Positions 834-55,349 of a stretch of 64,000 bases of DNA are shown piece after piece. Under the pieces are notes generated by a model that did no database searches, was not told where the DNA came from, and worked only from the letters and a program-made list of their open reading frames with translations. This DNA comes from Lytechinus pictus (lineage: Eukaryota). The translations under genes were made by a program, and so were the position numbers. The DNA lies in the NCBI RefSeq assembly GCF_037042905.1, contig NC_087250.1, positions 17,610,001 through 17,674,000 on the forward strand. Direction: 5' to 3'. How positions within the stretch are numbered: position 1 is the stretch's first letter; every line of letters begins with the position of its first letter.

Positions 834-860
834 ATCAGAGGGACGTGGGTTCAATCCCCA

Positions 861-2370
861 TGTCACATTGTGTTTGATGTGAACTTGACTTATTAGTCTA
901 AACAGGTTGTTTGACCACCCAAGAATTAAACTATAAGATAAAATTGTACCTTTCAATCAAAATGAATTTATTATATATATCAATATTGCCATTATCGAGG
1001 CTCACAAGCTGTCAAAACATAAAGTTCAATAAACCAGTATCAATAAGTTTTGGAACAATCTGTCTCAATTCAAATTAGTATAATGTAAATAAACTAAGTA
1101 TTGTGACCTGCTATTCCTATTCAAAGGAAAGAGCATAAACTCTGTGTGTGTTCATGAAAACAATGTATATACTATACATATACCGACTTTATATTATGGG
1201 GAAAGTTCAGTTTCTCAAGTCTTCACTCATCACCCGGTGTCAGACGCAAATGGATGAGCAGTGCCGAACGGAAGACGATATGAGGATGAACTCGCGAATG
1301 CGATGAACTTGCCAAACTAGAAGAAACCGGATAACCTAGATCTCGGGACTTTCCCGTGGATAACGTAGCAATCGTAGAACGTCGTAAGACGTCGAAGAGG
1401 CCGTGAACGTCACAAGACGTAGGACGTAGCTAAACGAGGAGAACTTTGGCGATACATGGAGACACGGAACGTCAAAAGACGTGGATAAACCATGGAGAAA
1501 AACGGCCGTCTGGAAGAGAATACGCAAGGATTAACAGCCTACAGTCCATATCATTTCTGTTATTCAAATGGCTTATAATAAAGTAAATGCAGAGTACATT
1601 CAAGCAGGTCACTGAACTTTCTATACTTGCTTTCGAGTACCTAATAGCAGTGTCCTAACTCTGAACAAGTGAAACATTAATCCTAACAAAGCGTCATATA
1701 AAAATCTCCACTCTCCTTAGTTGACAAGTGTTTAACATTTGTAGTAAATAGACTAATTGTCTTGATAAATGACAAAATAGCTTTCAAGTTAAAATTATTG
1801 GACAGTTAAGTCACTTCCTAAAACAATCATTTCATGACGTGTGTAAGGCATAAAATGTATCATAAAGTGTATGACATAAATATAATATCCGATATCTTTA
1901 CATGTATGTCTTATATCTTAGTCTTTAAATAGCATAATTATCCTTCGTCATGTTCAATTGTAATACAAATTAACATAACAGTTTCTAAATGTTATCAAAG
2001 CCTTCCATAATTATATGGTAAAATAAAACATCAACTTACAGTCTGGACCTTGAATTCCAACCAGTGAACCAACCACTGCTGGCTTACATGCCACTCCAAA
2101 TATCAAAGGCGTGGCACCAAAGTGCTGGCTTTCCCAGCCAAGGAGCTGCTGAAAGGTGCTGCTGCACCCTATGCTTGCTTATCTGCAGTCTGCTGAGCAT
2201 TTGCTTGCATTGCCCTATGCAGTGCACACACACAATAGCTATCGAACACAGTGAGGGGTTGCCTACTCTAGCAGTCAGGTTTGGTCTATTCATAAACAAA
2301 TTAAGGAGTTACTCAACCAAGTAGGCTCTTCCACTGGCTAGTAAAGGGGAGTTTGAATAAGCTTCTGACA
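861..2370 (-). repeat. 3' LTR (1510 bp)
   Basis: TGTCACA..TCTGACA; matches 7294-8803 at offset 6433, and the ORF-track translations of both copies are identical. Confidence 0.95.
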
Positions 2371-2392
2371 ATTACCCCCTATTTGAAAAAAA
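2371..2392 (-). promoter_or_regulatory. Polypurine tract
   Basis: Minus strand AAATAGGGGGTAAT directly abuts the 3' LTR. Confidence 0.75.
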
Positions 2393-2990
2393 TGTATCAC
2401 ATTTTGCAAAAACCAAAATATAAGAGCTTATTTCAACTCTAACATTAACTTCCTGTCTTTGTTTCAATATCGTCAGTAATCAAATTAAACACGACTCCTT
2501 TTCTGGGATCGAGTTTTTTTCTTTTTTTTTCTTCTTCTTCAAAGAAAATCATCAACAATGCATATGTGTGTATATATATATATCTATTCCTATTTAAAAC
2601 ATGTATACAGATGTCTTAGTAATTATAGTTATTATTTGTCACAGTGTTCAAGAAACTTGTATTTATCAGACATGTATGTTCATATATTATGTATATTATG
2701 TATACTTACTTACTATAACTGAACATTACACTTCAATACCTACTAAATTTATGTTAATGGTATTGGTAACAAATTTGTTTTCATTTTTTTTTTTTTATAA
2801 AGAGAAATTATCGAGTAAGTTAATTACGCTTGATTTATTATGCGGATATTTCTATTCCTAACAAGACAAATAAAATATCTCTTTACCTACTTAAGATCTT
2901 TTCATGGTATTAGACAATCTTTTTTTTTTAACACAAAACTTTAGATCAAGATAATAAAAAAAACACTAGCTCACTTTAGCTAGTAAAATA

Positions 2991-5900
2991 TTAAATTACA
3001 TTAAACTCTACTTGTTGACAACCCAGTTGACATTTACTGAGCCGAGCAGTCAGTCCTGCTGCTCGCAGTCTTCTCAGCAATTCTTGTAGAATAACAAGAT
3101 GCTCTTCCCATGTAGGGGTGTGGATCAAGATGTCGTCTAGCTTCGAAAAGAAGCGGGACCCTGACAAACTAGAAAATATTTCTTGTGTCTTTGGAAGGGG
3201 CTCAGCATCAAAAACAGTCACGCGGTTCAACCGCCTAAAGTCTATGCAAAAGCGATTACTCCCATCTAACTTCTTGACAATAACAATTGGGGATGAATAT
3301 GGAGAATTAGACTTTTCTACTACTTCCATCTCAATCATCTTCTCAACTTCATTATCAATTACGCCACGGAGGGCATGAGGAACTGGATATGGCTTCTGTC
3401 GGACGGTGTCGTCAGACGTTAGCCGAATCGAATGTTCACCTAACCGAGTCTTACCAGGTAAATCAGTCATTACATCTCTATAACTACCAAGTATCCTCTT
3501 CAACTGACGCTGCTGACTAGTTTCTAAGTTAGGTCCTAACTTTACATCTTCAACAGTCTCTTTCGCTTCCAATCTTGGAACTTGTATAGTAATTGGGTTT
3601 GATGTTGGAGATGGATTGTCCTCGTCGTCTTTCTCTTCATGGTCGACGATCGTGGCCTGGGCAATCACATCCAACAACCCAGCAACAGTAACATTGGGAT
3701 CTGGATTATTACTACTACTACTATCTGAATTTGCCTTTGTTTTGTCAAACCTATCAATATATCTCCTCAAAAGGTTTGCATGGAATGTCTTGTGGTTTCC
3801 ATTAACATCAAGACGATAATCATTATCGCCAAGCTTGTGTACAACCTTAAATGGACCTTTCCACTGGAGGAGCAACTTATTATGATCAGTGGGGAGGAGG
3901 ATAAGTACCTTATCTCCAGGGTCAAATTTACGCTGCCTACTCCTAACATTGTAGTGCCTTTCACTTCTAGACGTTGCCTTACGAAGCTCATCATGAGCAG
4001 CTTCTAGAGTACTCTTCAATCTCTCTTTAAGATCGACTACATATTGATAAGTAGTCTTCAACTCGGGATCATGAGTTTCATCACTCCATAAGTCCTTGAG
4101 TATTTCTAGGGGACCTCTAACCTGCCTACCATAGATCAATTCGAAAGGGGAATACCTAAGGGATGCCTGAGGGGCTGATCTATATGCAAACAACACTGGT
4201 CCTATGTACCTGTCCCAATCATTGGGTCGATCCGCACAAACTCTTTTCAAGATTTGCTTTAGGGTCTGGTTGAAACGCTCAACCAAACCATTACAAGAGG
4301 GGTGGTAGGGTGTTGTGGTCAATTGTTTTATTGACAACAACCTACTCACCTCCTTCATCATGTCAGACGTGAACTGACTACCACGATCGGTAAGGATTTC
4401 CTGAGGAACTCCCACCCTACAAAACACTTCAACCATAGCCTCAGCTACTGTGGTTGTTTCGATATTTGGCAATGCGACTGCCTCTGGATAGCGAGACGCA
4501 TAATCAACAATGGTCAGGATATACCTGTTCTTCTTTGTAGTCATTGGATGGATAGGGCCTACTATATCAATAGCCACTCTGAGAAATGGAATATCTATTA
4601 CGGGCATTTTGCCAAGTGGCACTTTGGGAACTCTTCCCTTTGGTACTGTCCGCTGACAAATGTCACAAGAGCGACAGAAACGAGTAACATCGGCATGAAT
4701 GCCGGGCCAGAAGAAACAAGTTAAAATCTTCTCAGTGGTTTTGCCTATGCCTTGATGCCCACTCATTATTCCTTCATGAGCAAGTGACAACACAACTTTC
4801 CTAAAGACCCGAGGGACTACCAATTGTTTCACAGAATTACCTCTCTCATTCTTAGGTTGAAACATTCTGTACAACAGTCCATCATCTACTACGAAATAAG
4901 TGTTCTTTCTATCATCATCTGACAAACTAACTTGAGCGAGTTCTCTCGCTCTCTTCAAACTAGGATCCTTTGCAGTTTCTCTTCTAATTTCTTCAGGAGA
5001 AACATCTGGGATTTGAGATGGAACTTTCAAGGGCCGCTGGGGGCGTCGAGCTTCTCGACTCTGAGACCTTGTCTGCACAGCTAGGCCTACATTAGTACCA
5101 TCATCACAATTAACTTCAACTATCTCATCCTCAGAATTAGAGTTACCATTGGAATCTACATTCCTAACATGACCTTGAGTAATATCATCATCATGAACTT
5201 CAACTATCTCATCCTCAGAATTAGAGTTACCATTGGAATCTACATTCCTAACATGACCTTGAGTAATATCATCACCCTGAACTACCATTTTCCAATCTGG
5301 ATGGGGATTACTCACGGCACGGACACCTTCAATGTCCCCTATTATAACATCAAAAACTGGTGTCTCTATACACAGTGCTTCTATTGTACCTACAAACAAA
5401 GGTGAGCTAATATGGACATTAGCAGTAGGAAACCTACGCAGAGTCTGATCTATCAAAACACATTGTCTATATTTACCAGTAAATTGATCTGACCTCACAA
5501 GACTTTTCTTAACCGCAACACCGGAACATCCTGAATCATAAAGAACATCAACCTTGTGTGATCCAATCCTACCTTCAACAACAGTCAACTTACCACGCCA
5601 ACGACGCTGACATGCAGCACACATCATCGGTGATTTTTGTAAGGTATCTCTATTAACTATCTCTGACTTATCTTTCTCACTAACTAAAGACATTAACAAA
5701 AGTCCAAGTGTCTCACTTCCTTCCATATCTGGACTAACAAGCGAACAAGTTGCACAAGAATCTGACCTACTATCAAGTGACACTTTACTATTTGTTTCAT
5801 ACTGAGTTGATTCTCTTTTCTGATTTTGGCTACTACTTTTTGAATGATCAGTACTACAAATTAGACTTGCACCTTGTAATTTAGTGTTACATTTAGCTGC

Positions 5901-6803
5901 TAAATGCCCCATCTTGTTACAGATGAAACACGGACCAATTCTTTTCCGTTCAGGAAGTGAATTTCTTAAGTTCCCCGGACTTGTTTTAGCTTCACTGTCT
6001 GACTGAGGGTACCTACTACCTTGTGGCTTTCCCTTGTTATCGTTCTTATTTTTCCTGGTAATTCCAAAGTGACCACTATGGGCCTCTACATACGTGTCTG
6101 CTAGACTAGTCATCTCTGAAATATTCTTAGGTTTCCTTTCCTTCAGAAAAAGACCTAGAGAGGTTCCACCTCTCTCAACCAGTTGTTGCTTGAGCAACAT
6201 TTCTACTACACCATCGAATGTACGTTGCGTACCTGACAGATCAATCCAACGACTCAAATAATGTTCTAACCTAACAACAAATTGAGTGGGGGTCTCCCCA
6301 GACTGTGGATTGGAATACCTGAACTTTTGACGAAAATCGTCACAAGTAAGTTCAAACCTTAACAACAATGCTTCCTTGAGGGCATCATAATCTTCAGCTT
6401 TATCTGCTGGAAGTCTTGAATACACATCGAGTGCCTTACCCTGCAAGAGTGCACTTAAACTAATGGCCCAACTACTTCTTGGCCATGGCTGAACTTCCGC
6501 ATACTTCTCAAACCTTTTGAGATATGCGTCCATATTATCTTTTCCTTCAACAAAATGAGGGAGTTTCGGGGTTGGTACCAAACTACGACCGTTTCCATTA
6601 CCATTATCACTATCAGACCTACTCTGGCTTTGAACACGAGCCAATTCAAGTTTCATCTCCAGAATTTTTTCTTCCTCTTTCCTAACTTCTCTATTAGCCC
6701 TACGTTCCTCTCGCTCTAATTGTTCCCTTTCTCCTACAAATGAAAGAAGCTCAGGCCCTGACAGACCTAATTCCTTGCCAATCTCAAACCACTTAGTACT
6801 CAT
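2991..6803 (-). CDS. Gag-Pol polyprotein, 1270 aa: gag (SCAN-like capsid, CCHC knuckle), aspartic protease, integrase, truncated RT
   Basis: CFICNKMGHLAAKC knuckle; VLYDSGC protease; H..H..CRSC zinc finger; DIVGP/TDRGSQF/ERFN DDE core; WKGPF motif; then RT RFCIDFRRLN, FSKLD fused to DILIH, stop soon after. Confidence 0.92.
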   Translation of the reverse strand: MSTKWFEIGKELGLSGPELLSFVGEREQLEREERRANREVRKEEEKILEMKLELARVQSQSRSDSDNGNGNGRSLVPTPKLPHFVEGKDNMDAYLKRFEKYAEVQPWPRSSWAISLSALLQGKALDVYSRLPADKAEDYDALKEALLLRFELTCDDFRQKFRYSNPQSGETPTQFVVRLEHYLSRWIDLSGTQRTFDGVVEMLLKQQLVERGGTSLGLFLKERKPKNISEMTSLADTYVEAHSGHFGITRKNKNDNKGKPQGSRYPQSDSEAKTSPGNLRNSLPERKRIGPCFICNKMGHLAAKCNTKLQGASLICSTDHSKSSSQNQKRESTQYETNSKVSLDSRSDSCATCSLVSPDMEGSETLGLLLMSLVSEKDKSEIVNRDTLQKSPMMCAACQRRWRGKLTVVEGRIGSHKVDVLYDSGCSGVAVKKSLVRSDQFTGKYRQCVLIDQTLRRFPTANVHISSPLFVGTIEALCIETPVFDVIIGDIEGVRAVSNPHPDWKMVVQGDDITQGHVRNVDSNGNSNSEDEIVEVHDDDITQGHVRNVDSNGNSNSEDEIVEVNCDDGTNVGLAVQTRSQSREARRPQRPLKVPSQIPDVSPEEIRRETAKDPSLKRARELAQVSLSDDDRKNTYFVVDDGLLYRMFQPKNERGNSVKQLVVPRVFRKVVLSLAHEGIMSGHQGIGKTTEKILTCFFWPGIHADVTRFCRSCDICQRTVPKGRVPKVPLGKMPVIDIPFLRVAIDIVGPIHPMTTKKNRYILTIVDYASRYPEAVALPNIETTTVAEAMVEVFCRVGVPQEILTDRGSQFTSDMMKEVSRLLSIKQLTTTPYHPSCNGLVERFNQTLKQILKRVCADRPNDWDRYIGPVLFAYRSAPQASLRYSPFELIYGRQVRGPLEILKDLWSDETHDPELKTTYQYVVDLKERLKSTLEAAHDELRKATSRSERHYNVRSRQRKFDPGDKVLILLPTDHNKLLLQWKGPFKVVHKLGDNDYRLDVNGNHKTFHANLLRRYIDRFDKTKANSDSSSSNNPDPNVTVAGLLDVIAQATIVDHEEKDDEDNPSPTSNPITIQVPRLEAKETVEDVKLGPNLETSQQRQLKRILGSYRDVMTDLPGKTRLGEHSIRLTSDDTVRQKPYPVPHALRGVIDNEVEKMIEMEVVEKSNSPYSSPIVIVKKLDGSNRFCIDFRRLNRVTVFDAEPLPKTQEIFSSLSGSRFFSKLDDILIHTPTWEEHLVILQELLRRLRAAGLTARLSKCQLGCQQVEFNVI

Positions 6804-7273: not shown

Positions 7274-7290
7274 TCCCGGACAAGCCCCCA
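7274..7290 (-). promoter_or_regulatory. Primer-binding site for tRNA-Pro
   Basis: Minus strand TGGGGGCTTGTCCGGGA 3 nt inside the 5' LTR; one difference from the MLV-type Pro PBS TGGGGGCTCGTCCGGGA. Confidence 0.88.
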
Positions 7291-7293
7291 AAT

Positions 7294-8803
7294 TGTCACA
7301 TTGTGTTTGATGTGAACTTGACTTATTAGTCTAAACAGGTTGTTTGACCACCCAAGAATTAAACTATAAGATAAAATTGTACCTTTCAATCAAAATGAAT
7401 TTATTATATATATCAATATTGCCATTATCGAGGCTCACAAGCTGTCAAAACATAAAGTTCAATAAACCAGTATCAATAAGTTTTGGAACAATCTGTCTCA
7501 ATTCAAATTAGTATAATGTAAATAAACTAAGTATTGTGACCTGCTATTCCTATTCAAAGGAAAGAGCATAAACTCTGTGTGTGTTCATGAAAACAATGTA
7601 TATACTATACATATACCGACTTTATATTATGGGGAAAGTTCAGTTTCTCAAGTCTTCACTCATCACCCGGTGTCAGACGCAAATGGATGAGCAGTGCCGA
7701 ACGGAAGACGATATGAGGATGAACTCGCGAATGCGATGAACTTGCCAAACTAGAAGAAACCGGATAACCTAGATCTCGGGACTTTCCCGTGGATAACGTA
7801 GCAATCGTAGAACGTCGTAAGACGTCGAAGAGGCCGTGAACGTCACAAGACGTAGGACGTAGCTAAACGAGGAGAACTTTGGCGATACATGGAGACACGG
7901 AACGTCAAAAGACGTGGATAAACCATGGAGAAAAACGGCCGTCTGGAAGAGAATACGCAAGGATTAACAGCCTACAGTCCATATCATTTCTGTTATTCAA
8001 ATGGCTTATAATAAAGTAAATGCAGAGTACATTCAAGCAGGTCACTGAACTTTCTATACTTGCTTTCGAGTACCTAATAGCAGTGTCCTAACTCTGAACA
8101 AGTGAAACATTAATCCTAACAAAGCGTCATATAAAAATCTCCACTCTCCTTAGTTGACAAGTGTTTAACATTTGTAGTAAATAGACTAATTGTCTTGATA
8201 AATGACAAAATAGCTTTCAAGTTAAAATTATTGGACAGTTAAGTCACTTCCTAAAACAATCATTTCATGACGTGTGTAAGGCATAAAATGTATCATAAAG
8301 TGTATGACATAAATATAATATCCGATATCTTTACATGTATGTCTTATATCTTAGTCTTTAAATAGCATAATTATCCTTCGTCATGTTCAATTGTAATACA
8401 AATTAACATAACAGTTTCTAAATGTTATCAAAGCCTTCCATAATTATATGGTAAAATAAAACATCAACTTACAGTCTGGACCTTGAATTCCAACCAGTGA
8501 ACCAACCACTGCTGGCTTACATGCCACTCCAAATATCAAAGGCGTGGCACCAAAGTGCTGGCTTTCCCAGCCAAGGAGCTGCTGAAAGGTGCTGCTGCAC
8601 CCTATGCTTGCTTATCTGCAGTCTGCTGAGCATTTGCTTGCATTGCCCTATGCAGTGCACACACACAATAGCTATCGAACACAGTGAGGGGTTGCCTACT
8701 CTAGCAGTCAGGTTTGGTCTATTCATAAACAAATTAAGGAGTTACTCAACCAAGTAGGCTCTTCCACTGGCTAGTAAAGGGGAGTTTGAATAAGCTTCTG
8801 ACA
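7294..8803 (-). repeat. 5' LTR (1510 bp)
   Basis: Direct repeat of 861-2370, adjacent to the PBS. Confidence 0.95.
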
Positions 8804-9316
8804 CCCCAGCCATTGTCTGTTTTGCTTCAAGAAATTTACCTACATTGTGCTGTACTCAACCAGTTACTGGTAAGAAGAAATTCCTCAAATGCCAGAGCAG
8901 ACCTGCTTTTTTTTTACAAAATCGTAATTTATTGAGAAAAACATCTCTTTATGTCTCTATTTCATTATGGTCATTAGATCAATGTAATTTCAGGTAACTT
9001 GTTTTTTTTTTCAATCATTTTGTAAAAATCAGGATGAGATATACACAAGTTTCAATGGTTTTTTTTTTTTTCATCTGCAAGAGCAGTGCGCATTTTAGCT
9101 TGCATGCAGCTTGAGCGTCGTGATGGGAGAGTGCGCCAAGCATTTTATTATGAAATACACTTTTTTTGGGAAAAATACAAAATATTTATCTCACACGGTA
9201 AAAATACTGATTTTTTTGTCAAAATACTGATTTTGGGGGATAAGAATACTGAAAATGCAAAATACAACTTGGCAGCTCTGCCAGAGCACCTGTAGGCAGC
9301 ACGGCTATAGCCTGGG

Positions 9317-9785: not shown

Positions 9786-9894
9786 GGTGTCGAAGAAACC
9801 TCCAATGCCATATGAATTCTGGCAGGACAAGCTACGCAAGAACCTTGATGTCTGGTATGCCTTTCTAAGCGTTGAGACTGCTACACGACAAAGT
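9786..9894 (+). CDS. BRD10: BRD10/KIAA2026-like chromatin protein, internal exon (earlier exons lie upstream of the window)
   Basis: tacag|..|gtgagt; VSKKPPMPYEFWQDKLRKNLDVWYAF; joins the next exon in phase 0. Confidence 0.7.
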
Positions 9895-10429
9895 GTGAGT
9901 TGAATCGTTGTATTCCCATTCTCAGTTTCTGTTTCGTATCGCCATGTTAATAATGATAATGATAGTAATATGGATATTTGTAATGCTCCAGTATCAATAA
10001 TGAGAAGATGTTTATGGCACAGTAAAGACAAGAAAATAAATGGAAACATATTTTTAAAATAGTCAAAGGTTATATGTGACCTGCAACCCCTAAAACAATA
10101 GTAAGTCACCCAAAATTAATTTCAAGATTTTTATGGAGCTTGGCAATTCCATAAAATGATCAACCATTTTGTACGTCTGATCCCCATTTTTCTCAAGTTG
10201 TACTTCACTTCATAAACTCACCAAGTCATGGTCCTTTGAGAACATTACAGACTCTCAAAAGAACAAGAAATATGAAACAGAAAATTTCATGAAGGTCCCA
10301 CATAGGGGGGTCGGACGTACATATTTATGGAATTGCCCAACTTTGTCAGCTCCGGTTTAAAAAAATTGGATGAGTCAGGCCTAATTGAACAATAAACTTT
10401 CGTTATTGTTTGTCTGTGTAATTCCTCAG

Positions 10430-10567
10430 GTTGCCCGTCATCTGTACATCTCTGAGCGTTTCTTTGAAGTGCTTGGGGATGTGAACCCCCTGACTGGTCG
10501 TCAGTATCATGATCTATCCATCTATGAGAGAGTTTGGATATTGAAGGGCATGTGTGATCATCTCTTT
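10430..10567 (+). CDS. BRD10: BRD10-like exon, WHIM1-like motif
   Basis: cctcag|..|gtaagt; FFEVLGDVNPL..YHDLSIYERVWILKGMCDHLF. Confidence 0.78.
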
Positions 10568-11113
10568 GTAAGTCTGAGCTTTATTCAAGCAATTCCATGA
10601 CATTTGCTCCGGCGAAAATTGCTCCGATGTAAAATCTACACGTTTAGCCAAACATAAGACCTAACCTCCAAAACTAAATAATAGACCCTCATCTTAATCT
10701 TTACATTATTCTGAACCAAAAACTCTATTACAATCTTAACTCTAACCCTATGCCCTCAGAGATATTAAGTCCAGAGCAAATGTCGTGTCGCCACCTGCGA
10801 AGTCAGCAACATATCTTTGAAATGTATCTTACATGTTGCACTGTTTATATTGGATTTAAAATTTCCCCTAAATTACATGTAGGTAACATCAAAAGGAAAA
10901 GAAAATCTCCCAGTTGACTTTGCTTGACCTAACTAATGAGAGGTACTGGTATATTAAACATGTTCTTCATGAGCTGGTCTAATTGCTCCGACTTGTGAAT
11001 TTTATATGGAGTTTGAACTGTGAAAGTTGAACCTATGTCTGTTTATTTTTGCATAATATCACTGTGATTGTGCCATACGCTCATTTGGATGATTTTGTTT
11101 CGCTGATCCCCAG

Positions 11114-11290
11114 GAAACGGACTATGATGTATGGTTTGGTGTGGATACCAGCACAATAGAGGATCAGCGCGTTGTGATGCTGGGGGAGGATGACGACAAG
11201 GCCAGCTATCTCTACTTCCCTCATTTCTTGTCGACTGATCTGAGAATCTATCGTCAGGCTCAAATCAAAGAAGACAAACGAAAGAAAAAG
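11114..11290 (+). CDS. BRD10: BRD10-like exon, WHIM2-like LGxD motif
   Basis: ccccag|..|gtaacg; MLGEDDDKASYLYFPHFLSTDLRIYRQ resembles KIAA2026 LGYD..HFPQF..DVRIYKQ (recalled, not searched). Confidence 0.78.
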
Positions 11291-11449
11291 GTAACGAAAA
11301 ATGGATTACTGACGGTAAACTTGCAGGCAGATTATTGTATGTTTTCAAGGGGAATTTTACACATTTCAGGAATAAATCACTTCATTTATAAACCCCCCCC
11401 CCCCCAAAGTGCATATCACAATTCCAATTCGTAACTAGATTTATATTAA

Positions 11450-12122
11450 CCTTAATAAGATGGGGGTGCTGATTCAGCCCCCCTCAACATTTTTCGCGAT
11501 AAATCCGCCGCGCAAAATGAGACCAAAATCGCGACCCCTGGGTATGCGGTTCGGATATTATGCTACATCTCATAAGTGCACGCAGACCCGAAATTGCTCA
11601 GAAACGTGAATTTGTGTACAAATCCAATACAAATATTGTTTTTAGCCAAGCAAAATCATTATATTTCCTTTTACTGATGAAAATCAATTATTTTCATCTT
11701 GTTTATGGTCAAAATGAAGTCCCCGTAAATTTCAATTGAAAAAGCAATACAGAACAAAAAGTAAAAAAACAAAGAAATACAGAAGAAATTAAACAAACGA
11801 ATCATAAGAAAATAAATGTGATGTTTAAATATTTTTAAAGTACATTTGATCAGTTTCCTATAAAGAGTCTGTGAATAAAAAAATAGCATTTCAGGGGCAT
11901 TATGTTAATTCAAGCAAAATTTTGGTTTTACGCATAAAGTAGAATAATTAGCAATGAGATTTTTTGCAGAATTTGATCTTATAGTTTTGTAGATTATGCC
12001 ATGGATATTACGTGTGCCAATTTTTATCACGATAGCGCGATCAACGGCCAAGATGACAAGGGGGACTGAATAAGCCACCCCAACTAAGTAGGCGTCGAAA
12101 TAGCCCAGTCTATTTTATAGGG
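11450..12122. mobile_element. piggyBac-like MITE (TTAA target)
   Basis: TTAA|CCTTAATAAGATGGG..CCCAGTCTATTTTATAGGG|TTAA. Confidence 0.6.
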
Positions 12123-12126
12123 TTAA

Positions 12127-12897
12127 CTCCCTTATTAAACTGGGGGGGGGGGGTCAATTTGACCCCCCTCGACAAATTTCGTCACTACGCCGTCGCGCCA
12201 ATTTTTTTTACCGCACTGCTCGCTTACTTTTTACTTTCAAGTCTTGCGCATCTTTTGAGACCAAATTTGCGACGCCTGGGTACGTGGTTCCGAAATTACG
12301 CATGTGCATGTCAGACCCAAAATTGCTCAAAAACGTGATTCCGTGTACAAAGTCAATGCAAATTGTGTTTTTCAACCAAAAATCATAAATGTATGATTAT
12401 TTTCACTTTTGTTGGTTTTAATGGATTTATTTTATGTTATTTATGATCGCAAAAGGGTCCCTGACAAAGTTCATCAGAAAAAACAATAAAAAAAAAAGAA
12501 ATACATAAGAATTTAAAAAACAATAAAATACGTAAGAAATTAATCATATTTTTGCAATTTTTTTGTAGATATTTGTTAGAAATGTGATAATTGATACTCC
12601 CACCAAATATTAGCATTCTTCTAGCTATATAAATTGAGATAAAGGCAAAAACATACACAAAAACCCAAATTTAGGGCAAATTTCATACGCTTATTTGCAT
12701 AATTAAGTAATTAAAAAATATAAACAATTAATATTTTGAAAATTTTTCTATACAGTCTTGTAGTTTACATCCGGCTCTACGCGTGTGCAAATTTTCGCGG
12801 CGATCGCGCAATCAGCGGCCGAGATCTGAGGGGGGGTCAAATTGACCCCCCCCCCCTCCAGTATATACTGGTCGGAAATAGCCCAGTTAAGATAGGG
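12127..12897. mobile_element. Related piggyBac-like MITE abutting the previous copy
   Basis: Shares TTAA 12123-12126; ends CCCAGTTAAGATAGGG|TTAA; internal GGGGGTCAAATTGACCCCC palindromes; body similar to 11450-12122. Confidence 0.65.
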
Positions 12898-13462
12898 TTA
12901 AAGCATGTGCCACAAAACAGTTATGATGTGAGATATATATAGTAAGATGTGTTTCATTAGATAAATTAAGAGATTTTACAATTTGATTTGATTAGGTTCC
13001 TGATCAAAATAAGATATATCCGTATTCATGTCTTGTTTTTTATGATACCCCTTTTCAAGCATAGAATTGGCTGAAAATTTTGGTATAGAATTTTTTTTTA
13101 ATCCTTTCTAATTTCTGATAACTAAATATGTAAAGAAATTGCTCAAAGGTGTATTTTAGATAAAAAATGAAAACATTGCTGAGAGAAAGGATGTTAGATG
13201 CCAAATTTAAATTCTAACAGCCGCAAATGGGCCAAATTTGACACAATGTATGAAAACAGTTTAAGGTGAGTTTTCATTTTTCTAACGTTGGCAGTGAGCT
13301 CTAATCTATTATTTCCTATCATTGTATCCAAACCCAATAATTTGATGCCTTTTCTACCTTACATTTAGAAAGTATTAGAAATCCCTTTGAGTTGAATGCC
13401 ATCTACCTGGTTATAAATTGAACAGAGCTTTTTTCCCCAATCTTTGTTGCCTCTCCTCTCAG

Positions 13463-13819
13463 AAAGCGGAAAAGGAAGCGAAGAGCCCTTCAAAGAAGGC
13501 AAAGAAAGAAGCTGAAAGCGCTTCTGAGGTCGAGGAGGGGCCCAAGAAGAGAGGCAGGCCCAGGAAGAATGCAGAACCCGATGAGAATTCGCCCAAGAAG
13601 ACTGCCAAGACACCCGCAACCCCTGCCAGTGTAGGACCAAAGAAGCGTGGCAGACCTAGGAAGGATGCAGGAGAGACAAGTGAGTCAGAGACTACTACTA
13701 GTAAAGGGAAGGAGACTGGTGGTGAAGCCAAGACCCCAACTCCGGCTACTCCTGGTGTGAAGGCAGGTAGAGGGAGACCTAGGAAAGATGGTTCCACTCC
13801 AGCTCAGGCTGCTAAGAAG
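13463..13819 (+). CDS. BRD10: BRD10-like exon with three AT-hooks
   Basis: ctcag|..|gtgagg; KKRGRPRK twice and GRGRPRK; phase 0 at both ends. Confidence 0.82.
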
Positions 13820-14050
13820 GTGAGGCATCTGTTCTTGTTTGTATTTTTATCATGTTTTTATATTGTACAATTTGAATTTGAATATTGAAATAACTGAATT
13901 GAATTGAATAAAAATTTGGCTGGATAGGAATCATGGAAAAATATTCCACAGGGCCTCTGGCAATTTCACTCCCTGAATGCTGAAAAGAACCCTGGAAAAT
14001 TAAAAACCTGCCCCAGAAAATTCCCATTCACTGCAATGTTAAAGCTTATT

Positions 14051-14387
14051 CAGGGTTCCCACAGTCACGGAAAATCCTGGAAAAATTTGTGGTCAGGGAA
14101 AAGTCAGGGAATTTGGAAAATTTGTGACAAGTCATGGAAAGAATTGCATTTACCTCTTTGCTATAGCAGCTTTCCAGTTTGTCGTGTCTCGCAACTCTCA
14201 TATTCTGTCATCATACTCTGCTATTATAATTGATGTTCATGATTTCAATTTTTCCCAGTTTTGTGACGTCCCAAATTCTACTTAACTCCCGGGACGTCAC
14301 AGGAAGTCATGGAAACCAGCAATTTAGTCATGGAAAAATCATGGAAAAGTCATGGAATTCTGTTTTCAAATTTCTGTGGGAACCCTG
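14051..14387. mobile_element. MITE
   Basis: TIR CAGGGTTCCCACAG..CTGTGGGAACCCTG; internal GTCATGGAAA repeats. Confidence 0.6.
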
Positions 14388-14946
14388 TTATTCATTGTCG
14401 CTTATTTAGTTAGTCGGTTGTGGAAAGAAGCCCCGAAAATACAAAATTGATTTTTTTTTTTGCCTCAGAGAGAGGGCGGGTGCACTAGGATTCTTGTCTG
14501 GGAGTGATAAATGAATTTCACCAAGTATGTTATGAATTTAGAGAATATTTGGTCATTTCTACGGTGTTTTTTCTTGATTTTTCCAAACAGTAAAGACCTG
14601 CGAGTTTTGCAAATTTTGTAAATGGTTTTTTATTTAACGGTCATTAGAACATTCATGAACCGTTCTGGCTCAGACTTACTAATTACATGTACCTCCAATA
14701 TTTGTTTATTACAACTGAAAACTGTCAATATTTATTTGTAAACAACAAGCTGATACATTTTAACATGATTTATATACATGTAGCATTGCATATCTTTGCA
14801 GGCAGACCTTTTTCATCATTGAATTCTCATTACATGCCCCATTAAGACACTTACTCTTACTCTCCATACTATCAAAGAGTTATTGATTTTGAAGCAAATT
14901 AAACAGACACCTTGAATATTCTTTTTTATTTATCTGTTGACTACAG

Positions 14947-16299
14947 ACGCCCGCTAAGCCAATGGCAATCGTAACACCAACAAGGCGTTCAAGTCGGCGA
15001 TCGGCAAGATTAGAAAAACCTGAGCTTGAGGAGCAGGATGAAAAACTGGAAGAAAAGAGCCAAAGTGGCAGTGGTGACAACGAGGATGTTACAGATGCTG
15101 CCTGTGACTCACAAAACAATGAAACAAACGTTGAAGATAAGGACCTAAAATCTGATAGGACAGTGTGTACTGATGGACCTCAGTCATCATCCGTGTGTGA
15201 TGACAGTCTGGATAGGACAGAAAATAAAGCAGGGACTCTATCTCGGGAAACAGAAGAGGACGCAGATAACTTGGACAATAAACACCTTGAAACAATATCA
15301 ACTAAGGACATTGACAATGTTGTTGATGGTTTATCTGGGAGTGATGAGGGAAGGACTCGCGAAAGTGATGTACAGGGAGGGGAAGCCTGTTGTACAGCAG
15401 AAGGGGATTCCCCTCATTCAGCGGGAGGGAAATCCCCTTCCGAGAATGTATTATGTAATGGTGTAATGGAGGTGGATGATAGCAGTCGTCAAACACATTC
15501 CAATGATGCCCCAAGGGGCTCCAAAGATGATGGTGCAGGTCATTCTGTTGAACTTACTAAACCAACGGAGGAGGTAACCAATGGACCTGATGCCCAAGTT
15601 TCACCAGATACTGTCCAAACCAAGGGTGAGTCAGTGGATGAGACTCACCAGTTGGAAAATGGCAGTTCCGCCAATGGAATGAGTACGCTCAATCAGATCC
15701 AATCTAATAATGTTATGGACATTGACCACAAGGTTGCCCAGCTTTCTGGAAATGACATCAGCAAGGACCCATGCAGCAATGGCATGGACACTGGGGATAA
15801 TGTCAGTAATGACTGCGTAAACAATTCTAAGTCTGTAGATACTGAAGCAACAAGTGCTAAAAGCGATGATCTTTGTCAGGAGGATTGTTCAGTGGACAAA
15901 GATGTAGGTGCCCAGGATGGACAAACACCACAAGAATGCTCTGAGAAGGATTCGGCGGATGCAGAAAATGGCCCATCTGTAGCCAAAGCCGAAGCTCTGC
16001 CAGAGGTCAAGGCAGAGTTGGCCGTCAAGGACGAAGCAATGGAGGTGGTGGAAGGTGACCTGAAGGGGAATGACCTGAAGCAGGGTGACCTGAAGCAGGA
16101 TGACCTGAACCAAGATGACCTGAAGCAGGACGGTGAGGTCATGGAAAGAATCCCAACCCCTCCTCCCCCACAGCCTTTACCGGGTATCCTCCCGCCAGAG
16201 GGAGAATTCGAGATGGTGTGTGACAGTCTGGAAACCTTCAGGGTCCTGGTGGAGAAGTTTGCCCAGAAGGATGAGACTATCACCAAAGGACGAAAGACG
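14947..16299 (+). CDS. BRD10: BRD10-like large acidic disordered exon ending in a WHIM3-like motif
   Basis: ctacag|..|gtaaga; 451 open codons; FEMVCDSLETFRVLVEKF. Confidence 0.82.
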
Positions 16300-16933
16300 G
16301 TAAGATCAGGAATCTAAGTCAATATCAATAATGATATCGGGAGCCTTTAATGGCACTACGGAAGTAGAAGACAGAGGCCTATATGCTGAAGTCTTGTTCA
16401 ACTTTGACCATGGTCTAACTGGCCTAAAATTTTCATTTGTTTCATTTGTGACCTGTGTTCTTTCCCTATGCTTTGATGGTCTCGGAAACAATTTTAGTAA
16501 TTATGAGACAGTTATGAATAAATTGAGCATTTTACAGAGTGGATTTTGAACTTTATAAATCACATTATTATTATTATTTTAACAGCTATTTCAATATGAG
16601 TTCATACAGAATCCAATGAAATGACCACCCAAATTTCTGTTAGTATATGAGCAAAATGGTTCTGGAAGAAAATCTGCAATTGCTGAGAATTTCTAAAAAC
16701 ATCTTGGCATTCCAGCCAGAAAGGGGTCTTTTCCCAATCAATAATAATACACTGTTCTACAGTGCTAATCTGTAGTCACGATCGTTTTCAGCTTTATTTC
16801 ATAAATTTCAGTTTATGATATATATGATCTATGATGATACAGTGGCAATTAACCTTGGTTTTACAGACTTTCTCATGAAATAAATGATTACTACAACTGC
16901 ATTTACATAGCTTTAATCTTCGTACTTCTTCAG

Positions 16934-17107
16934 ATTGTCCAACCTATCAAGAGATCCGGTCGAACCACTGACCTCCACAGGACACTCGCCAAGATGCTTG
17001 AAGACTTGGAGCCAATCGAAGCCAAGCTGCAGAAGGTTGTCCACAAGGCCAGAGAGGTGGTGTACAATGAGCAGGAGGCCTACAAGAAGGATCCTAGTCC
17101 TGACCAG
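16934..17107 (+). CDS. BRD10: BRD10-like exon (helical)
   Basis: cttcag|..|gtatgg; 58 codons IVQPIKRSGRTTDLHRTLAKMLEDLEPIEAKLQK.. Confidence 0.78.
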
Positions 17108-17526
17108 GTATGGTCATGATTAATTTCCATTGGGCAAGGGTTGTCATCAGATGTAGGAGGGACTACTTTGAGCCACTCCAATTGGGGCATGACTGAGAAT
17201 TTTATCTGAAAGCAAGGGAATGTTAAGGGCATATTCAAGCTCCCAGTAAACAATTTTCAACATTCGAAAATTGCCCGGCACCTTGCCACAAGGTTCAGGG
17301 GGGGTGGGGTGAAATTAGCTGCTTTTATTATTTTCAGATCATTTTCTTTGTCAGTGGGGAAATATTTTTGACCAGTAAAGTTAATATACTCTGTACAGGA
17401 AAAAACATGAATCCACTGTAATTTTGTTTATATTAATGATGCAATGTACTTGTTCTCAAACTCCCACCAGTAGGTCATAGTTTCCTAGAAAATTATTCAA
17501 TATATTTTTCTCTATCTGCTTTGCAG

Positions 17527-20130
17527 GAGGCAGCAGCTTACTGGTACCAGCTTCACGTCAAGAAGCCATTAGAAGCAGTTGAGACATCCTCAATAGCGGC
17601 AAGCAGCATTGATGATGACTTCTCCAGTTCGGAAAGCAGCTCTGAACTTGACAGTGATGAGCTTAGCGATCAGGAGAGTGATGATGACACAGCAGAGTAT
17701 GATAACAGTGATGGCGATTATGAAGTGTCTGTGTCGAGAGGTCCAACCCCTAGTGTTGAGGTCAATGGGTCGGAAGGATCTGAAAGTCTTGGAGGGAAGG
17801 TTGATCTGTACTCTGGTGTTGAGATTGCGGGAAGGACCATGAGGTCTTCAAAGCGTAGAAGAGCTCAGAAGAGGGAGGTTATAAGGGACCGGAAGAAAGC
17901 CAAGCGATCTAAAATCCAGATCGTCAAAGGCGTTCCTCTTCAAGGTAGATATGCGCAACGTGGTGAAGGTGAGGAGACGGACGAGACCAAGCTCAAGAAG
18001 GTTCATGAGGAACTCAAGGAGAAATTGAAGGCAGGTTCTACGTTTCAAATGACAAAGAACATGGTCCCAGGAGCAGCGCAGAGGAATTTTCCGCCCTATA
18101 AAAAGAATGAGAGTTACAGCCGTCCATCTGCTCCTAAGAAGAAGGCAACTCCAGTATTCCAACGGGATACAAGTGACAAGTTCATCAGAATCCTGAAGCG
18201 TACTGCAGGAGCTAGCGAAGCTGCTGCAGTATCTCCAATCCCTAAACTGACCAAGCAGTCACCAAAAGAACCAACATTGAAAGTTCCATTTCTACAGAAA
18301 ACCAATGCTACCGTTCAGCCTACTACTGATGCACCAATTGCAGATAAGAAAACAAAGACAGAGACATTTTCGTTCACCATTGACGCTAAAGTTTGGGAGT
18401 CTCTGAAGGACAAGCCAGAAGAGCGTCAAAGACTAATTGTAGAGCATGTTGAAAAGATGAGGGGTGCCAGTGGACAAAAGAAGGAAATGTCTCAGAAAGT
18501 TCAGAACTATAGGAATACACCATGGTTCTCAAACAAGAGCAGTGGTTCAAGCAAGTCTACTAGCTCAGCAGGTGGGTCAGCTGAGGAATTCAGCCTATCT
18601 CTGCCTGAGGCACCGGAAAAGAGATTGCATGTGGCCATTGGGAATGCCAGCCAGGGGCAGACGGGAAGTCCTGTCGTCAAGCAGAAGCACACTCCAGGCA
18701 TTCCGGACAGCATGCCCATCCTAGATCCAATTGGTAGTCACAAGGGATCAGTGCTTCAAAACACCAACATGCCTACCCTAGCACCGGCGGTTTCACAGAA
18801 GATTGTTCAGTCTAACATCTTAGTTAGTCCAGGAAGTGTCTCTGTGCCACAACAGGCATTGGCTCAAACCCAAGGACTTCTGCAGCCAAGATCGGGGAAT
18901 CAACCTACTGCAATAGTATCCTCAGGAAATAATGTAAGTACTTCAGTGCCCAGGGAACAACTGTTCATCCTCTTACCAAATGGACAGCTGACTCGAAGTG
19001 ACGGTACTCCTCTGGAAACCAAGCACTTTGGTGTCGCTAACAAGGCTACTTTTTCTCCTTCACGGCAAGCAATTGAGAACTCTCAACAGCTTCCTAGGGT
19101 GCAATTAGGCACCCAACAGTACATGTACATCCCGCCTCAGAATGTGGGAAATGTTCTATCTGGTGCCAAAGGTAATGTCGTCAGAAAGGCGCAGGCACCA
19201 GGAACTGCTTTGTCCTTGAATGTAGGGATGGCTCATCCCACCGCTGCCTCTGCTAGCACTCAGAGTGTCAGACAGCAGGTTCAGGCAACGCAACTCCAGG
19301 ACCAAATCAACAAAAAAGTGGTAAAGTCCCAACCGTCTACTCCTTGCACTCTGTATATCATACCCCATTCTAATCAAAACCCACTTTACACTGCATGCAA
19401 ATCATCCAATAATGCTACCAAACCCAGTGCAAGTCAGGAAAATACACCTCTAAATCTAATAAATTTCCTCAACATACCACTTGGTACTACTGACAAGCAG
19501 GGTAGGAGTAAGAAAACTAATGAACAGGCTGCTGAGGAAATGTCTTCATCAGGGGGGAATGGAGATGGTTCTCATCGCATAAGTCTCAAATCCCCACCCA
19601 TACATTCTAAAATGACAGATTCTCCTGCAAACGTAGGAGGAACTAATTTTAGCGGTTCAAATAGGGGCATGACTGAGAACTTAACCTTGAAGCAACAAAA
19701 CAATAAGGGCATAGTTAGGCTTCCAGTAAACAATCTTAACCAACCATGCATAGTTCTAGGTAAGGTGTTTCAGCAAGCTTCTGGGAGGGATGAACTTCAG
19801 CAACCTAATTGCAAAACTGATAAAACTGAAGTCAGAGGTCGAGATCCCAATCCTACAGCTGAGGAAACCGTTCCCGTGAAACCAGATACTGTAACATCTA
19901 TTGCAATGAAACCAGTGTCTGATGAGGTAGCTGGAACCAAACCTGATGAGATCACTCATCAAGCGAAGGATCAGTCAAGTTGTAGTCATTCTGAAGCTCA
20001 TGCTTCACCAGATGAGGGTGTCTTTAAGCTACTTAATCAGTACTTTGATGAAATCCTGGAGGAGAACCTTGGCCCCTTGTACATGCCTCCTTTAGATCAG
20101 GGTGCCCAAGATGCAGGGACATCAATGTAG
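17527..20130 (+). CDS. BRD10: BRD10-like large exon, terminal if read through to the stop at 20130
   Basis: ttgcag|GAG in phase 0; about 867 open codons with acidic, basic and Q/S/P-rich blocks. Confidence 0.8.
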   Translation, partial: EAAAYWYQLHVKKPLEAVETSSIAASSIDDDFSSSESSSELDSDELSDQESDDDTAEYDNSDGDYEVSVSRGPTPSVEVNGSEGSESLGGKVDLYSGVEIAGRTMRSSKRRRAQKREVIRDRKKAKRSKIQIVKGVPLQGRYAQRGEGEETDETKLKKVHEELKEKLKAGSTFQMTKNMVPGAAQRNFPPYKKNESYSRPSAPKKKATPVFQRDTSDKFIRILKRTAGASEAAAVSPIPKLTKQSPKEPTLKVPFLQKTNATVQPTTDAPIADKKTKTETFSFTIDAKVWESLKDKPEERQRLIVEHVEKMRGASGQKKEMSQKVQNYRNTPWFSNKSSGSSKSTSSAGGSAEEFSLSLPEAPEKRLHVAIGNASQGQTGSPVVKQKHTPGIPDSMPILDPIGSHKGSVLQNTNMPTLAPAVSQKIVQSNILVSPGSVSVPQQALAQTQGLLQPRSGNQPTAIVSSGNNVSTSVPREQLFILLPNGQLTRSDGTPLETKHFGVANKATFSPSRQAIENSQQLPRVQLGTQQYMYIPPQNVGNVLSGAKGNVVRKAQAPGTALSLNVGMAHPTAASASTQSVRQQVQATQLQDQINKKVVKSQPSTPCTLYIIPHSNQNPLYTACKSSNNATKPSASQENTPLNLINFLNIPLGTTDKQGRSKKTNEQAAEEMSSSGGNGDGSHRISLKSPPIHSKMTDSPANVGGTNFSGSNRGMTENLTLKQQNNKGIVRLPVNNLNQPCIVLGKVFQQASGRDELQQPNCKTDKTEVRGRDPNPTAEETVPVKPDTVTSIAMKPVSDEVAGTKPDEITHQAKDQSSCSHSEAHASPDEGVFKLLNQYFDEILEENLGPLYMPPLDQGAQDAGTSM

Positions 20131-21728
20131 CTTTCATATGTAGTCCAAGAGCCAAGTCTTGAACAGTGTTATTGGGAATACCTCTTTTGCCTCCAAATGC
20201 TTCCCAAGATATACAAGGGCCAAGTCTTTATGGACATGGTTTACAGGAGCATTATATTTGTAGTTCCAAATGTTTTCCACCAAATATGTGGCCAAATTTT
20301 ATGAAAACGTTTTTCAAGATTAAATACTTACGAATTATGGGGGCAGACCGAAAGATGTACTTTTGTATAAATATAATCTGTATGATTTTTATTGGAGAAA
20401 GTGCTTAATATTTATATAGGAAGAGGACATGGATTGCAGAAATCTACATATTTTTTTCAGAGGCCAATGTAGTTTAAGGATGACGGTATTAGATCAATTT
20501 AGACAGATTTTGGAGGTTAAAGGTGATAATCACTTGGACTCTTCAAATGATTTATTAGTGACGGAAATTAATCCATCAAGATTTTCCATGAAAGGACAAT
20601 GGGGGGGGGGGGGGTCAACTCATATTTATTTACTACACTGAAAGATATTAATCAGTTACTCAATTATTCTTTTGAATAGATGAAAAAAATTCAGATGAAG
20701 ATGCGATAAGGGGAACAAGAATTTTTTAATGTATAGTCAGTGGACATTTATAGATTAAAGGTGTGTAATCAGAATAAATATCCCATTGAAATATGGAAAG
20801 CATTGCCAGTCTGGTACCACTAAAAAGCGAATAGTCATTCGCTCATGCAACCTTGAACCGTAGGACTTTTCCATCCAGAGGCTCTTTTTCAAGGATAAGA
20901 TGCTTTGTTCAAGGTATTTTTGACAGCTTATTCAAAACCAATAGATTGAATCGTCCTTGGCTCCTGAACCTTATCACCCAGAGGCGATTCTTGCAGCATA
21001 CGCTTTTCAGCATGGCAATCACCTGGCATATGAAGCAAGGACTCGGGATTTGTTTGAGCTTGGTAACTATAGTGTATTTCACTGATAAGTGTTTGTTGTC
21101 AAGAGTTCACTGTTTAGAACGGTTGAGTTTAATTCCTGCTTTTCTGTTTAAAAAGGACAGTTCAGTTGTGTCCTATCGGCTGTTATCTCTTTGGCTTCTC
21201 ATCTGATACCTGGTAATCCCTGTAAAAAGAAAGGGAAATGTATTTAGAGGTCAAAGGGTAAACAAGTTTTGACTGACTCATTTTCATCACAGTTTCAGTT
21301 TTGGCTTGCTATAACTCCAAATGTTTTACTTTCCCCAAATTTTGCATGAAAGTTTAATTTGTTCTGTTTTTAACCTAATTTGTTTTTTATCCCTGCTTTA
21401 ACTTTATTAATGATTCATATTTACACCATATTTACCATTTCATAACTTTGATATATGCCAACCTGGGGCCCATAATAAGTAAGAAGCTCTGTGATTGATT
21501 GTTACTTTGTACGACATTACGATCAATTCAATGAAGCATAAAAATCAACACTTAAATGAATCACCAAGTTCGTTTAATGGGGCATTGGTGAGTCTTTCAC
21601 AAAGCTGTTCGTAAGTTACAAGCGACTTTACGCCTGGCTGGTGATATCTTCTTGTGGTAAATGATATACTCCAGATTTTCATTGATTTTGATTCAGCACC
21701 TAAGGAAGGATCACTATTTGTTCATTAA

Positions 21729-22120
21729 AGATAAATTCCAGTATTGGTAACGATCTCAAAATGACTTTTTACAAAATCTAATATAATGACCACCCAAGTG
21801 TCTGTTTTTATGAATAAAAATATGTGCCAAAGGATTCTGGAAGAAATTGTGTAATTGCTGAGAAATAAGCAAAATAAGCGCGGATTCGGTCACTTCCGTC
21901 GGGTCTTTTTTCCAGCAATAATAATACAGTGTCCCACGTGTGCCTATCTGTGTTGGTGATCTTGAGTGTGAACATTTTTCAGCGTAGATTTCAAGATTTC
22001 ACAAAGTTAAGTTATGTAACTGTACCAGATCTAGATCCTCGATGATATACTGACAATTAAGCCTGGTCTTACAGACTTTCTCATGAAATCAGTGTTTACT
22101 GCAATTACTGGCATTTCTCT
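21729..22120. mobile_element. Kolobok-like MITE (TTAA TSD)
   Basis: TTAA|AGATAAATTCCAGTA..TACTGGCATTTCTCT|TTAA; a decayed relative lies at about 16520-16912. Confidence 0.65.
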
Positions 22121-22323
22121 TTAAGTCACTGGTAAATTACGAATAGCTTTATGAAACACCCACCATGAGTATGATATCAGGGTGCCGTTTCATGAAGATG
22201 TTTGTAAGTTAAGAGTGACTTTAAGAACGACTGGTGATCCTTGTAAATGATATCCATCATTAGTGATTATTTAGCACATAAAAAAGGTTCACCAGCAGTT
22301 CTTACTTCTTAAGTCCTTCTTAA

Positions 22324-22914
22324 AGGTCAAGTCCACCCCAGAAAAATGTTGATTTGAATAAATAGAGAAAAATCGAACTAGCATAACACTGAAAATTTCA
22401 TCAAAATGGATGTAAAATAAGAAGGTTATGACATTTTAAAGTTTCGCTTATTTTCCACATAACAGTGATATGCACAATTCAGTGATAAGCAAATGAGACA
22501 GTCGATGATGTCCCTCACTCACTATTTTGTTTTTTATTGTTTGAATTATACAATATTTCATTTGTTACATATTTGATAATAAGGACCAACTTGATTGAAC
22601 AAGTATTAAACAATGCTAATTCCACAAGTTCAGGGAGGAATTAATTGTTTCACTTGACAATGATGAGAAAATTATAATTTTTTGTAATTTTTATAAAAAA
22701 AATACAAAAGAAATAGTGAGTGGATACGTCACCAGTCTCCTCATTTGCATACCGACCAGGATTTGCATATGACTGTTTTGTGAAATTAAGCAAAACTTTA
22801 AAATGTCATAACTTTCTTATTTTACATCCCATTTTGATGAAATTTTCGGTGTTATGCTTGTTAGATTTTTCTCTTTTTATTCAAATCAAGTTTTTGTTGG
22901 GGTGGACTTGTCCT
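22324..22914. mobile_element. Kolobok-like MITE family A
   Basis: TTAA|AGGTCAAGTCCACCCC..GGGGTGGACTTGTCCT|TTAA; further copies at 41584 and 54743. Confidence 0.85.
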
Positions 22915-25900: not shown

Positions 25901-25917
25901 TCTCTTTTGGATATCAG

Positions 25918-51024: not shown

Positions 51025-51460
51025 GGTTCCATGACAATTGCTCCGCCGACATCTGCTCCGCCGACAATTGCTACGCAAAATACGACAACTGCTCCGCCGA
51101 CAATTGCTCCGGACAGTTGCTCCGCCGACAGTTGCTCCGTCGACACTTGCTCCGCCGATATTTGCTCCGTCGACACTTGCTCCGCCGATATTTGCTCCGT
51201 CGACATCTGCTCCGCCGATATTTGCTCCGCCGACAGTTGCTCCGCCGATAATTGCTCCGCCGACATCTGCTCCGATTTTACGACAATTGCTCCGCGACAA
51301 TTGCTCCGCCGATATTTGCTCCGCCGATAATTGCTCCGCCGATAATTGCTCCGCCGATAATTGCTCCGCCGAAAATTGCTCCAATTATACGACATTTGCT
51401 TCACGACAATTGATCCGCAGTCTATTGCTCCGCCGTCATGTGCTCCGATAATACAATTGC
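51025..51460 (+). repeat. 15-bp tandem array (GACANTTGCTCCGCC)n, left arm of a foldback element
   Basis: Directly visible; inverted copy at 55350-55779. Confidence 0.9.
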
Positions 51461-54742: not shown

Positions 54743-55344
54743 AGGTCAAGTCCACCCCAGACAAATGTTGATTTGAATAAATAGAGAAAAATCAGACTAG
54801 CGTAACGCTGAAAATTTCATCAAAATCGGATGTAAAATAAGAAAGTAATAGCATTTTAAAGTTTCGCTTATTTTTCACAAAACAGTGATATGCACAACTC
54901 AGTGAAATGCAAATGAGTCAGTCGATGATGTCCATCACTCACTATCCCTTTTGTTTTTTATTGTTTGAATTATACAATATTTCATTTTTTACAAATTTGA
55001 AAATACGGACCAACTTGACTGAACCATATAATATTAAACAATGCTAATTCCACGTGTTCAGGGGGGATTAATCGTTGTTTTACTTGGCAATGAGGAGAAA
55101 ATTAGAATATTTCATATTTCACATAATAAAATACAAAAGAAATAGTGAGTGGATGACATCATCAGTCTTCTCATTTGCATACCAACCAGGATGTGCATAT
55201 AACTGTTTTGTGAAATTAGGCGAAACTTTAAAATGTCATAACTTTCTTATTTTACATCCGATTTTGATGAAATTTTCAGTGTTATGCTTGTTGGATTTTT
55301 CTCTTTTTATTCAAATCAATTTTTGGTTGGGGTGGACTTGTCCT
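54743..55344. mobile_element. Kolobok-like MITE family A
   Basis: TTAA-flanked; same TIR as 22324-22914. Confidence 0.85.
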
Positions 55345-55349
55345 TTAAA

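Follow-up and report, generated by a model that had tools for sequence, protein, structure and literature searches.

A young Gmr1-type retrotransposon of Lytechinus pictus that lacks a reverse transcriptase core and RNase H and likely belongs to a semi-autonomous subfamily

Introduction

Non-autonomous elements with long terminal repeats (LTRs) usually retain only cis signals or Gag. Among the closest described systems are the semi-autonomous wheat families RLG_Sabrina_SA (Gag-protease) and RLG_Quinta (Gag), with RLG_Wilma and RLG_Cereba as partners (PMC9744471, PMC11302176). These families, like the element described here, are multi-copy LTR elements without reverse transcriptase (RT) but with an intact structural open reading frame (ORF), and they are thought to contribute proteins while being cross-mobilised. 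They are, however, old, high-copy plant families, each with a named partner, and they lack integrase as well as RT; our element has an animal host, few copies seen and no named partner, and, unlike Sabrina_SA, Quinta and the TR-GAG type, it carries a whole integrase. Sugar beet has non-autonomous families with Pol remnants alongside TR-GAG elements (PMC13570524). There too coding domains, sometimes fragments of integrase, are retained, but the Pol domains are described as partly decayed, whereas the integrase described below is whole and its changes are mostly silent.

Two further comparisons come from animals. Defective morphs of endogenous retroviruses (ERVs) that are moved in trans, such as the D-type of ERVK[2-1-LTR] in cattle, ETn/MusD and IAP I-delta-1, resemble our case in that a defective subclade is moved by competent kin, can outnumber them and recombines with them (PMC10924933); the D-type ERVs, though, have no intact ORFs, and they are retroviruses, not Ty3/gypsy elements. 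[quoted passage not shown]

The nearest relatives in layout are the Gmr1-like Ty3/gypsy elements, which are defined by an integrase that lies upstream of RT (PMC8220671, PMC3587641). With them our element has in common a single ORF in the order Gag-protease-integrase-RT (Gag-PR-IN-RT), a SCAN-like capsid, a gypsy-type RT and integrase, and TG...CA LTRs; unlike them, it has no RT core, thumb or RNase H (RH), and the loss is common to diverged copies. In the titles and opening lines of abstracts from a collection of limited coverage, we found neither a Gmr1 form with such a loss of RT nor a spreading subfamily that consists of Gag-PR-IN without RT.

How could such an element spread, and do its own proteins matter when it does? 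On balance, we think that the locus is a young Gmr1-type copy, likely of a semi-autonomous subfamily that borrows RT and RNase H in trans and probably brings its own Gag and integrase. All positions below refer to the window, by which we mean the whole 64,000-nucleotide stretch of L. pictus DNA that was analysed.

Structure of the Element

The element lies on the minus strand as a single ORF (6803-2991) of 1270 codons without a stop, between two LTRs with TG...CA ends that show 0 mismatches over 1510 bp and are enclosed by a 5-bp target-site duplication (Table 1); both the open frame and the identical LTRs had been claimed in an initial annotation of this DNA, and both are borne out. With its LTRs, its target-site duplication and its stretches like a primer-binding site and a polypurine tract, the element has the outfit expected of a Gmr1-like Ty3/gypsy element. 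The primer-binding-site-like stretch has what we take to be a likeness to tRNA-Pro; ARAGORN found no tRNA.

Table 1. Features of the element, in window coordinates
Feature	Position	Strand	Evidence or remark
Left copy of 5-bp target-site duplication	856..860	.	sequence
3' LTR, 1510 bp, TG...CA	861..2370	-	identity to 5' LTR
AT-rich (25% GC) non-coding segment, without thumb or RNase H remnant	2371..2990	-	
Polypurine-tract-like purine run adjoining 3' LTR	2375..2384	-	sequence; putative function
RT remnant after motif C (aa 1224-1267)	3003..3134	-	91% identity to intact P0003; Pfam RVT_1
Second break, end of likeness to intact RT	3003..3004	-	219 aa of thumb, connection and RNase H absent
Deletion junction, single Leu-Asp common to motifs A and C	3135..3140	-	62 aa including motif B missing
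RT remnant, N-terminal part to motif A (aa 1085-1223)	3135..3551	-	88% identity to P0003
Integrase: HHCC zinc finger, D-D-E core, WKGPF/SH3 C-terminal domain	3744..4802	-	93% identity to P0003
Aspartic protease, D-S-G active-site motif	5289..5606	-	
Gag: SCAN-like capsid region (6063-6581), CCHC knuckle (5889-5930)	5889..6803	-	Pfam
Primer-binding-site-like stretch, starts TGG, 3 nt from 5' LTR	7274..7290	-	sequence
5' LTR, 1510 bp	7294..8803	-	
Right copy of 5-bp target-site duplication	8804..8808	.	sequence

Along the ORF, Pfam places SCAN/gag, zf-CCHC, integrase and a weak RVT_1 match in that order, so that the integrase (aa 668-1020) precedes the RT remnant (aa 1085-1267). A GPF/Y-type integrase motif is present (WKGPF at aa 981), and the best match of the element's RT in the PDB is the RT of Ty3 (E 6e-20). 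Judged by its Gag-PR-IN-RT order and its motifs, the element would be a Gmr1-type Ty3/gypsy retrotransposon, the tree on which we placed it being one of close relatives only. In two public sequencing runs (X1 and X3), the LTR-side end of the 2371-2990 segment is joined to the LTR (joint 8803 to 2371). The locus is a young, normally integrated copy that is unable to make RT or RNase H.

Two Lesions in the RT

The initial annotation had read FFSKLD-DILIH at about 3120-3155, with motif A fused to motif C at a shared Leu-Asp, and this is what we find: the protein reads RFFSKLD-DILIH from 3155 to 3120, the two shared codons occupying 3140-3135. Its estimate of 65-70 aa for the usual gap has to be corrected to 62 residues (186 bp), the spacing found in 94 of the 97 relatives with both motifs matched (in the other 24 of the 121 proteins examined, the two could not both be matched) and likewise in the RT of Ty3 (4ol8_A), where motif A ends at residue 153 and the Leu-Asp of motif C stands at 214-215. 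The early end of the ORF and the absence of RNase H were also rightly seen: the stop falls 3 residues past the last RT-like residue, at a point where intact relatives continue for 219 residues, and a tblastn search of the window gave no trace of RT core, thumb or RNase H (best E 0.91, elsewhere). That is, the complete RT (three catalytic Asp motifs) and the RNase H of an autonomous LTR retrotransposon are not there. We do not regard the pattern of lesions as chance, because among the 231 proteins with a whole integrase that were compared in a domain map, this is the only one that keeps both flanks of the RT without core, thumb and RNase H; a pattern scan of the proteins retrieved, together with the domain map, found no second protein with the A-C fusion.

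How did motif A come to abut motif C? A deletion by microhomology between two Leu-Asp codon pairs is plausible on the letters, since in the nearest intact relative Leu-Asp stands at either end of the stretch; the event would most likely have been a template switch between the two pairs, and such a switch would yield an in-frame deletion without selection. An alignment scan gave 74 distant loci (30-66% identity), of which 19 had both motifs readable, with 2-5 identical bases around the two Asp codons; Leu stood at both sites in 1 of the 19 (5 identical bases). Two distant Gmr1-type loci with frameshifted integrases have lost, respectively, the N-terminal part of the RT with the core (L033) and everything from the core to the thumb (L064); these are ordinary dead copies. 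Splicing as a source of the junction was rejected on finding no GT at any cut position within the junction codons, a judgment made from the DNA of the deleted copy. Nor do we assign a function to the fused RT stub, in which the proportion of silent changes (1 of 11) is compatible with neutral evolution (p = 0.48).

The Same Deletion in Other Copies

A deletion of this kind could be the private misfortune of one dead copy, or even an artefact of assembly, an idea that has nothing in its favour except that copies with internal deletions are, in general, common. In public sequencing runs, part of 2371-3600 was found in 20 rows, and 4 of the 24 listed runs, none of them from a second organism whose runs had shares of 0.09-0.13, were aligned to the element. 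From X1, an independently assembled contig of 2138 nt spans 3004-5141 end to end with 0 gaps and 16 differing letters; in other words, the same motif A-C junction is present on a copy 0.75% diverged from the window. X3 belongs to a different study; one of its contigs extends over about 3072-3543, without a listed joint. To judge by the depth and by the distances to contig ends (118 letters between its end and 3189, with 223 of the 231 letters of the bin filled), this contig appears to span the junction too; it has only 3 of X1's 11 changes in the RT remnant. The deletion is thus neither unique nor an assembly artefact, and a one-off dead copy is scarcely credible.

Were the window and X1 alleles of one insertion, 0 LTR differences at such divergence would have a probability of about 1e-5, assuming no gene conversion or assembly collapse. 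The window, X1 and apparently X3 (the last two seen as Logan contigs, which may be majority paths over several copies) would thus be independent copies with the same lesion, an independence argued from the identity of the LTRs. Another X3 contig exits the LTR end into 56 further letters, the first of which is unlike the flank in the window; it points to another insertion site, although with no link to the deletion.

A second locus is annotated in L. pictus itself (P0013, LOC135155081), on a different chromosome-size contig (42.4 vs 28.5 Mb). Its protein is 99% identical outside the RT and falls with the window protein into one 90% cluster, and both of these annotated members are RT-dead, P0013 having a frameshift before motif A. 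P0013 and the window have four derived RT changes in common, and at two of these sites X1 agrees with the outgroup; since P0013 thus lies inside a clade bracketed by two deleted copies, we infer that it is likely deleted too (its stop precedes the junction). Its frameshift means that the reading frame need not be kept.

Selection on What Is Left

The initial annotation had proposed dN/dS on gag and integrase; we give pN/pS for one pair of copies, the window and X1, for which all 16 differences of the junction contig and all 5 of the next contig are listed. The RT remnant accounts for 11 of them, 10 replacements and a single silent change; the rest, in integrase, protease and spacer, divide into 3 replacements and 7 silent changes (pN/pS 0.12), and in integrase alone 4 of 5 changes are silent. 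On these small counts (11 + 10 changes, one pair of copies), the RT remnant differs from the rest (Fisher p = 0.0075), and the non-RT part departs from neutrality (binomial p = 0.0016). Once the Gag contig is added (2 listed replacements, up to 3 unlisted changes), pN/pS becomes 0.20-0.32, and the contrast weakens to p = 0.027, or 0.084 in the worst case. The retained ORF outside the RT thus has a pN/pS of 0.12-0.32 in this one pair, as a semi-autonomous element should.

Could the element nevertheless be a plain parasite, mobilised in trans, whose own proteins are irrelevant, its Gag-PR-IN having been recently inherited from or swapped with autonomous copies? Recombination between competent and defective copies is documented for a bovine ERV (PMC10924933); P0013 tolerates its frameshift, and another relative, P0485, has a damaged integrase; and the sequencing reads, as described below, hint at coexisting, perhaps intact, molecules. 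Against this, silent divergence outside the RT is not depressed: at 1.3%, it is of the same order as the overall divergence of the RT remnant (2.0%), and the integrase therefore does not seem to have been recently overwritten. Moreover, the linker that precedes the RT is free of replacements, which set in where the RT itself begins (aa 1092), and the N-terminal RT sequence, as easily swapped as integrase, decays all the same. We consider a plain parasite unlikely, if far from negligible.

The claim that Gag-PR-IN is intact stands for the integrase, which is whole and mostly silent in its changes, and only partly for the protease, which has gained 15 changes in the window's lineage, about four times as many as the 4 gained in the intact sister lineage of P0003 (p = 0.019). 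The active-site motif accounts for two of the 15, with the catalytic Asp kept; integrase changes number 9 in the window's lineage and 10 in P0003. The fast protease may be relaxed or shifted after the loss of the RT-RH cleavage sites.

The Search for a Helper

No intact member nearer to the element than P0003 (integrase 93%, RT 88% identity) came out of the protein searches, nor any autonomous partner above 93% identity; among the intact families named in L. pictus, P0006/P0487 comes closest (integrase 77%, Gag 61% identity). A metagenome scan with P0003 and a search of viral contigs gave no match.

The initial annotation had imagined the element as possibly one half of a complementing pair, in which a partner keeps RT-RH, has lost Gag or integrase and needs the element as much as the element needs it. 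The logic is complementary, and the failure of protein searches to turn up an intact member above 93% would suit it. Yet every close intact relative found with RT-RH (P0003; P0006/P0487) also encodes Gag, PR and IN, and no RT-only close relative is among the 120 short matches listed (best identities about 60%), an absence that weighs little because repeat-masked annotation hides most copies. Mutual dependence therefore finds no support here, and we think it very unlikely.

A different possibility is that no intact family member is left in the species and that RT-RH comes from another Gmr1-type family, such as P0006/P0487, which is intact and annotated in L. pictus. The RT-dead state of both annotated cluster members would agree with this, as would X1, whose depth at the listed RT positions comes entirely from one contig, and the four runs, none of which has a listed joint for an intact core arm. 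But contigs drop rare variants, and a helper of that family would require co-assembly at 61% Gag identity. There is also the second break: the X1 contig ends exactly at 3004, where the likeness to intact RT ends, and one read pair of a further run (X24) seems to break off at the same place, with 120 letters in the bin. X1 has an excess depth of about 52 over 75 letters at this break, which suggests that most X1 molecules continue through it as the window does; perhaps, then, X1 holds a deleted majority and a minority that continues differently and is not truncated. With that hint against it, a helper from another family seems highly improbable. In about 6% of two runs, RNA reads covered each strand at a depth of 0-3, and none across the junction was among those listed.

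Of the partly autonomous subfamily that had first been proposed, then, one side is upheld by a deletion common to diverged copies and by a silent bias in integrase and protease, while the helper that it calls for was not found.

How a Semi-Autonomous Element Might Work

If the element belongs to a semi-autonomous subfamily, its defective RNA would keep the primer-binding site, polypurine tract and LTRs and would be translated into Gag-PR-IN followed by an RT stub without activity. Mixed particles would form from this protein and an intact relative's polyprotein, the helper's RT and RNase H would copy the defective RNA, and integrase of either source could insert the cDNA. The likeliest helper would be an intact copy, low in number, from the element's own family. 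The integrases of Ty3 and Ty1 support reverse transcription only when they come with RT (PMC5371799); a helper should therefore supply an integrase as well, and that of the element may be superfluous. By analogy, the element's integrase would matter at integration, if at all.

Because integrase precedes RT in the Gmr1 clade, 3' losses of the single ORF remove only RT-RH. A sister lineage has lost RT-RH independently. Two proteins from ENA records, P0385 and P0485, are 98.5% identical to each other, encode Gag-PR-IN (integrase identity 89%) and join the integrase-RT linker directly, and in frame, to the last 22 residues of RNase H; they are the only linker-to-RNase H fusions among the 231 proteins with a whole integrase, and their loss is known from protein records. 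In a third member of the group, the protein ends behind the integrase. The integrase tree unites the window protein and P0013 with intact P0003 (100/98) and sets the P0385 group apart (97/97), and the breakpoints of that group differ; RT was therefore lost twice. P0485 has replacements beside the catalytic Glu of its integrase and is probably decaying, so integrase is not kept in every copy.

One might go further and suppose that Gag-PR-IN without RT is a recurrent, selected form of Gmr1 elements, arrived at within one small clade by at least two different in-frame deletions, that outnumbers its helpers, supplies the capsid and integrase of a divided replication system and possibly takes RT even from a different family; we offer this as speculation and rather doubt it. 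Quite apart from that, a subfamily with an integrase under selection and no RT would mean that integrase is in short supply or favours the element that encodes it, and that co-assembled polyproteins exchange RT more freely than any other part. Such elements would be a natural test of which Pol functions act in trans in single-ORF elements, and they carry a warning: surveys of transposable elements that are based on RT miss or misfile lineages of this kind.

Surroundings and Other Features of the Window

The element adjoins the end of a tRNA-like SINE head (41-860 and 8804-8861), in which a B-box-like motif lies around 846-856. A further element, whose ends are inverted (87-114 and 806-833) and which comes with a 9-bp duplication, interrupts this SINE head too; with two insertions no more than about 30 bp from a Pol III-type box, a target preference is conceivable. 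Within the LTR, at 7942-8473, X1 and X3 also contain a path that leaves out 530 bp; its depth is similar to or above that of the full form, and it is likely a second LTR variant. The spacer between protease and integrase has an 84-bp tandem duplication (5111-5280) that is common to the window and P0013 and absent from one X3 contig.

Farther along, two inverted arrays of a 15-bp repeat (51013-51450 and 55330-55790) lie 4.2 kb from each other and show 95% complementarity over 274 nt; they are probably the ends of a repeat-bearing DNA element; related repeat units lie at 10594 and 63044. The plus strand carries a spliced host gene (9787-27012) with AT-hook-like motifs (13391-13888) and long low-complexity exons, and the retroelement lies upstream of the first exon-like stretch seen, antisense to the gene.
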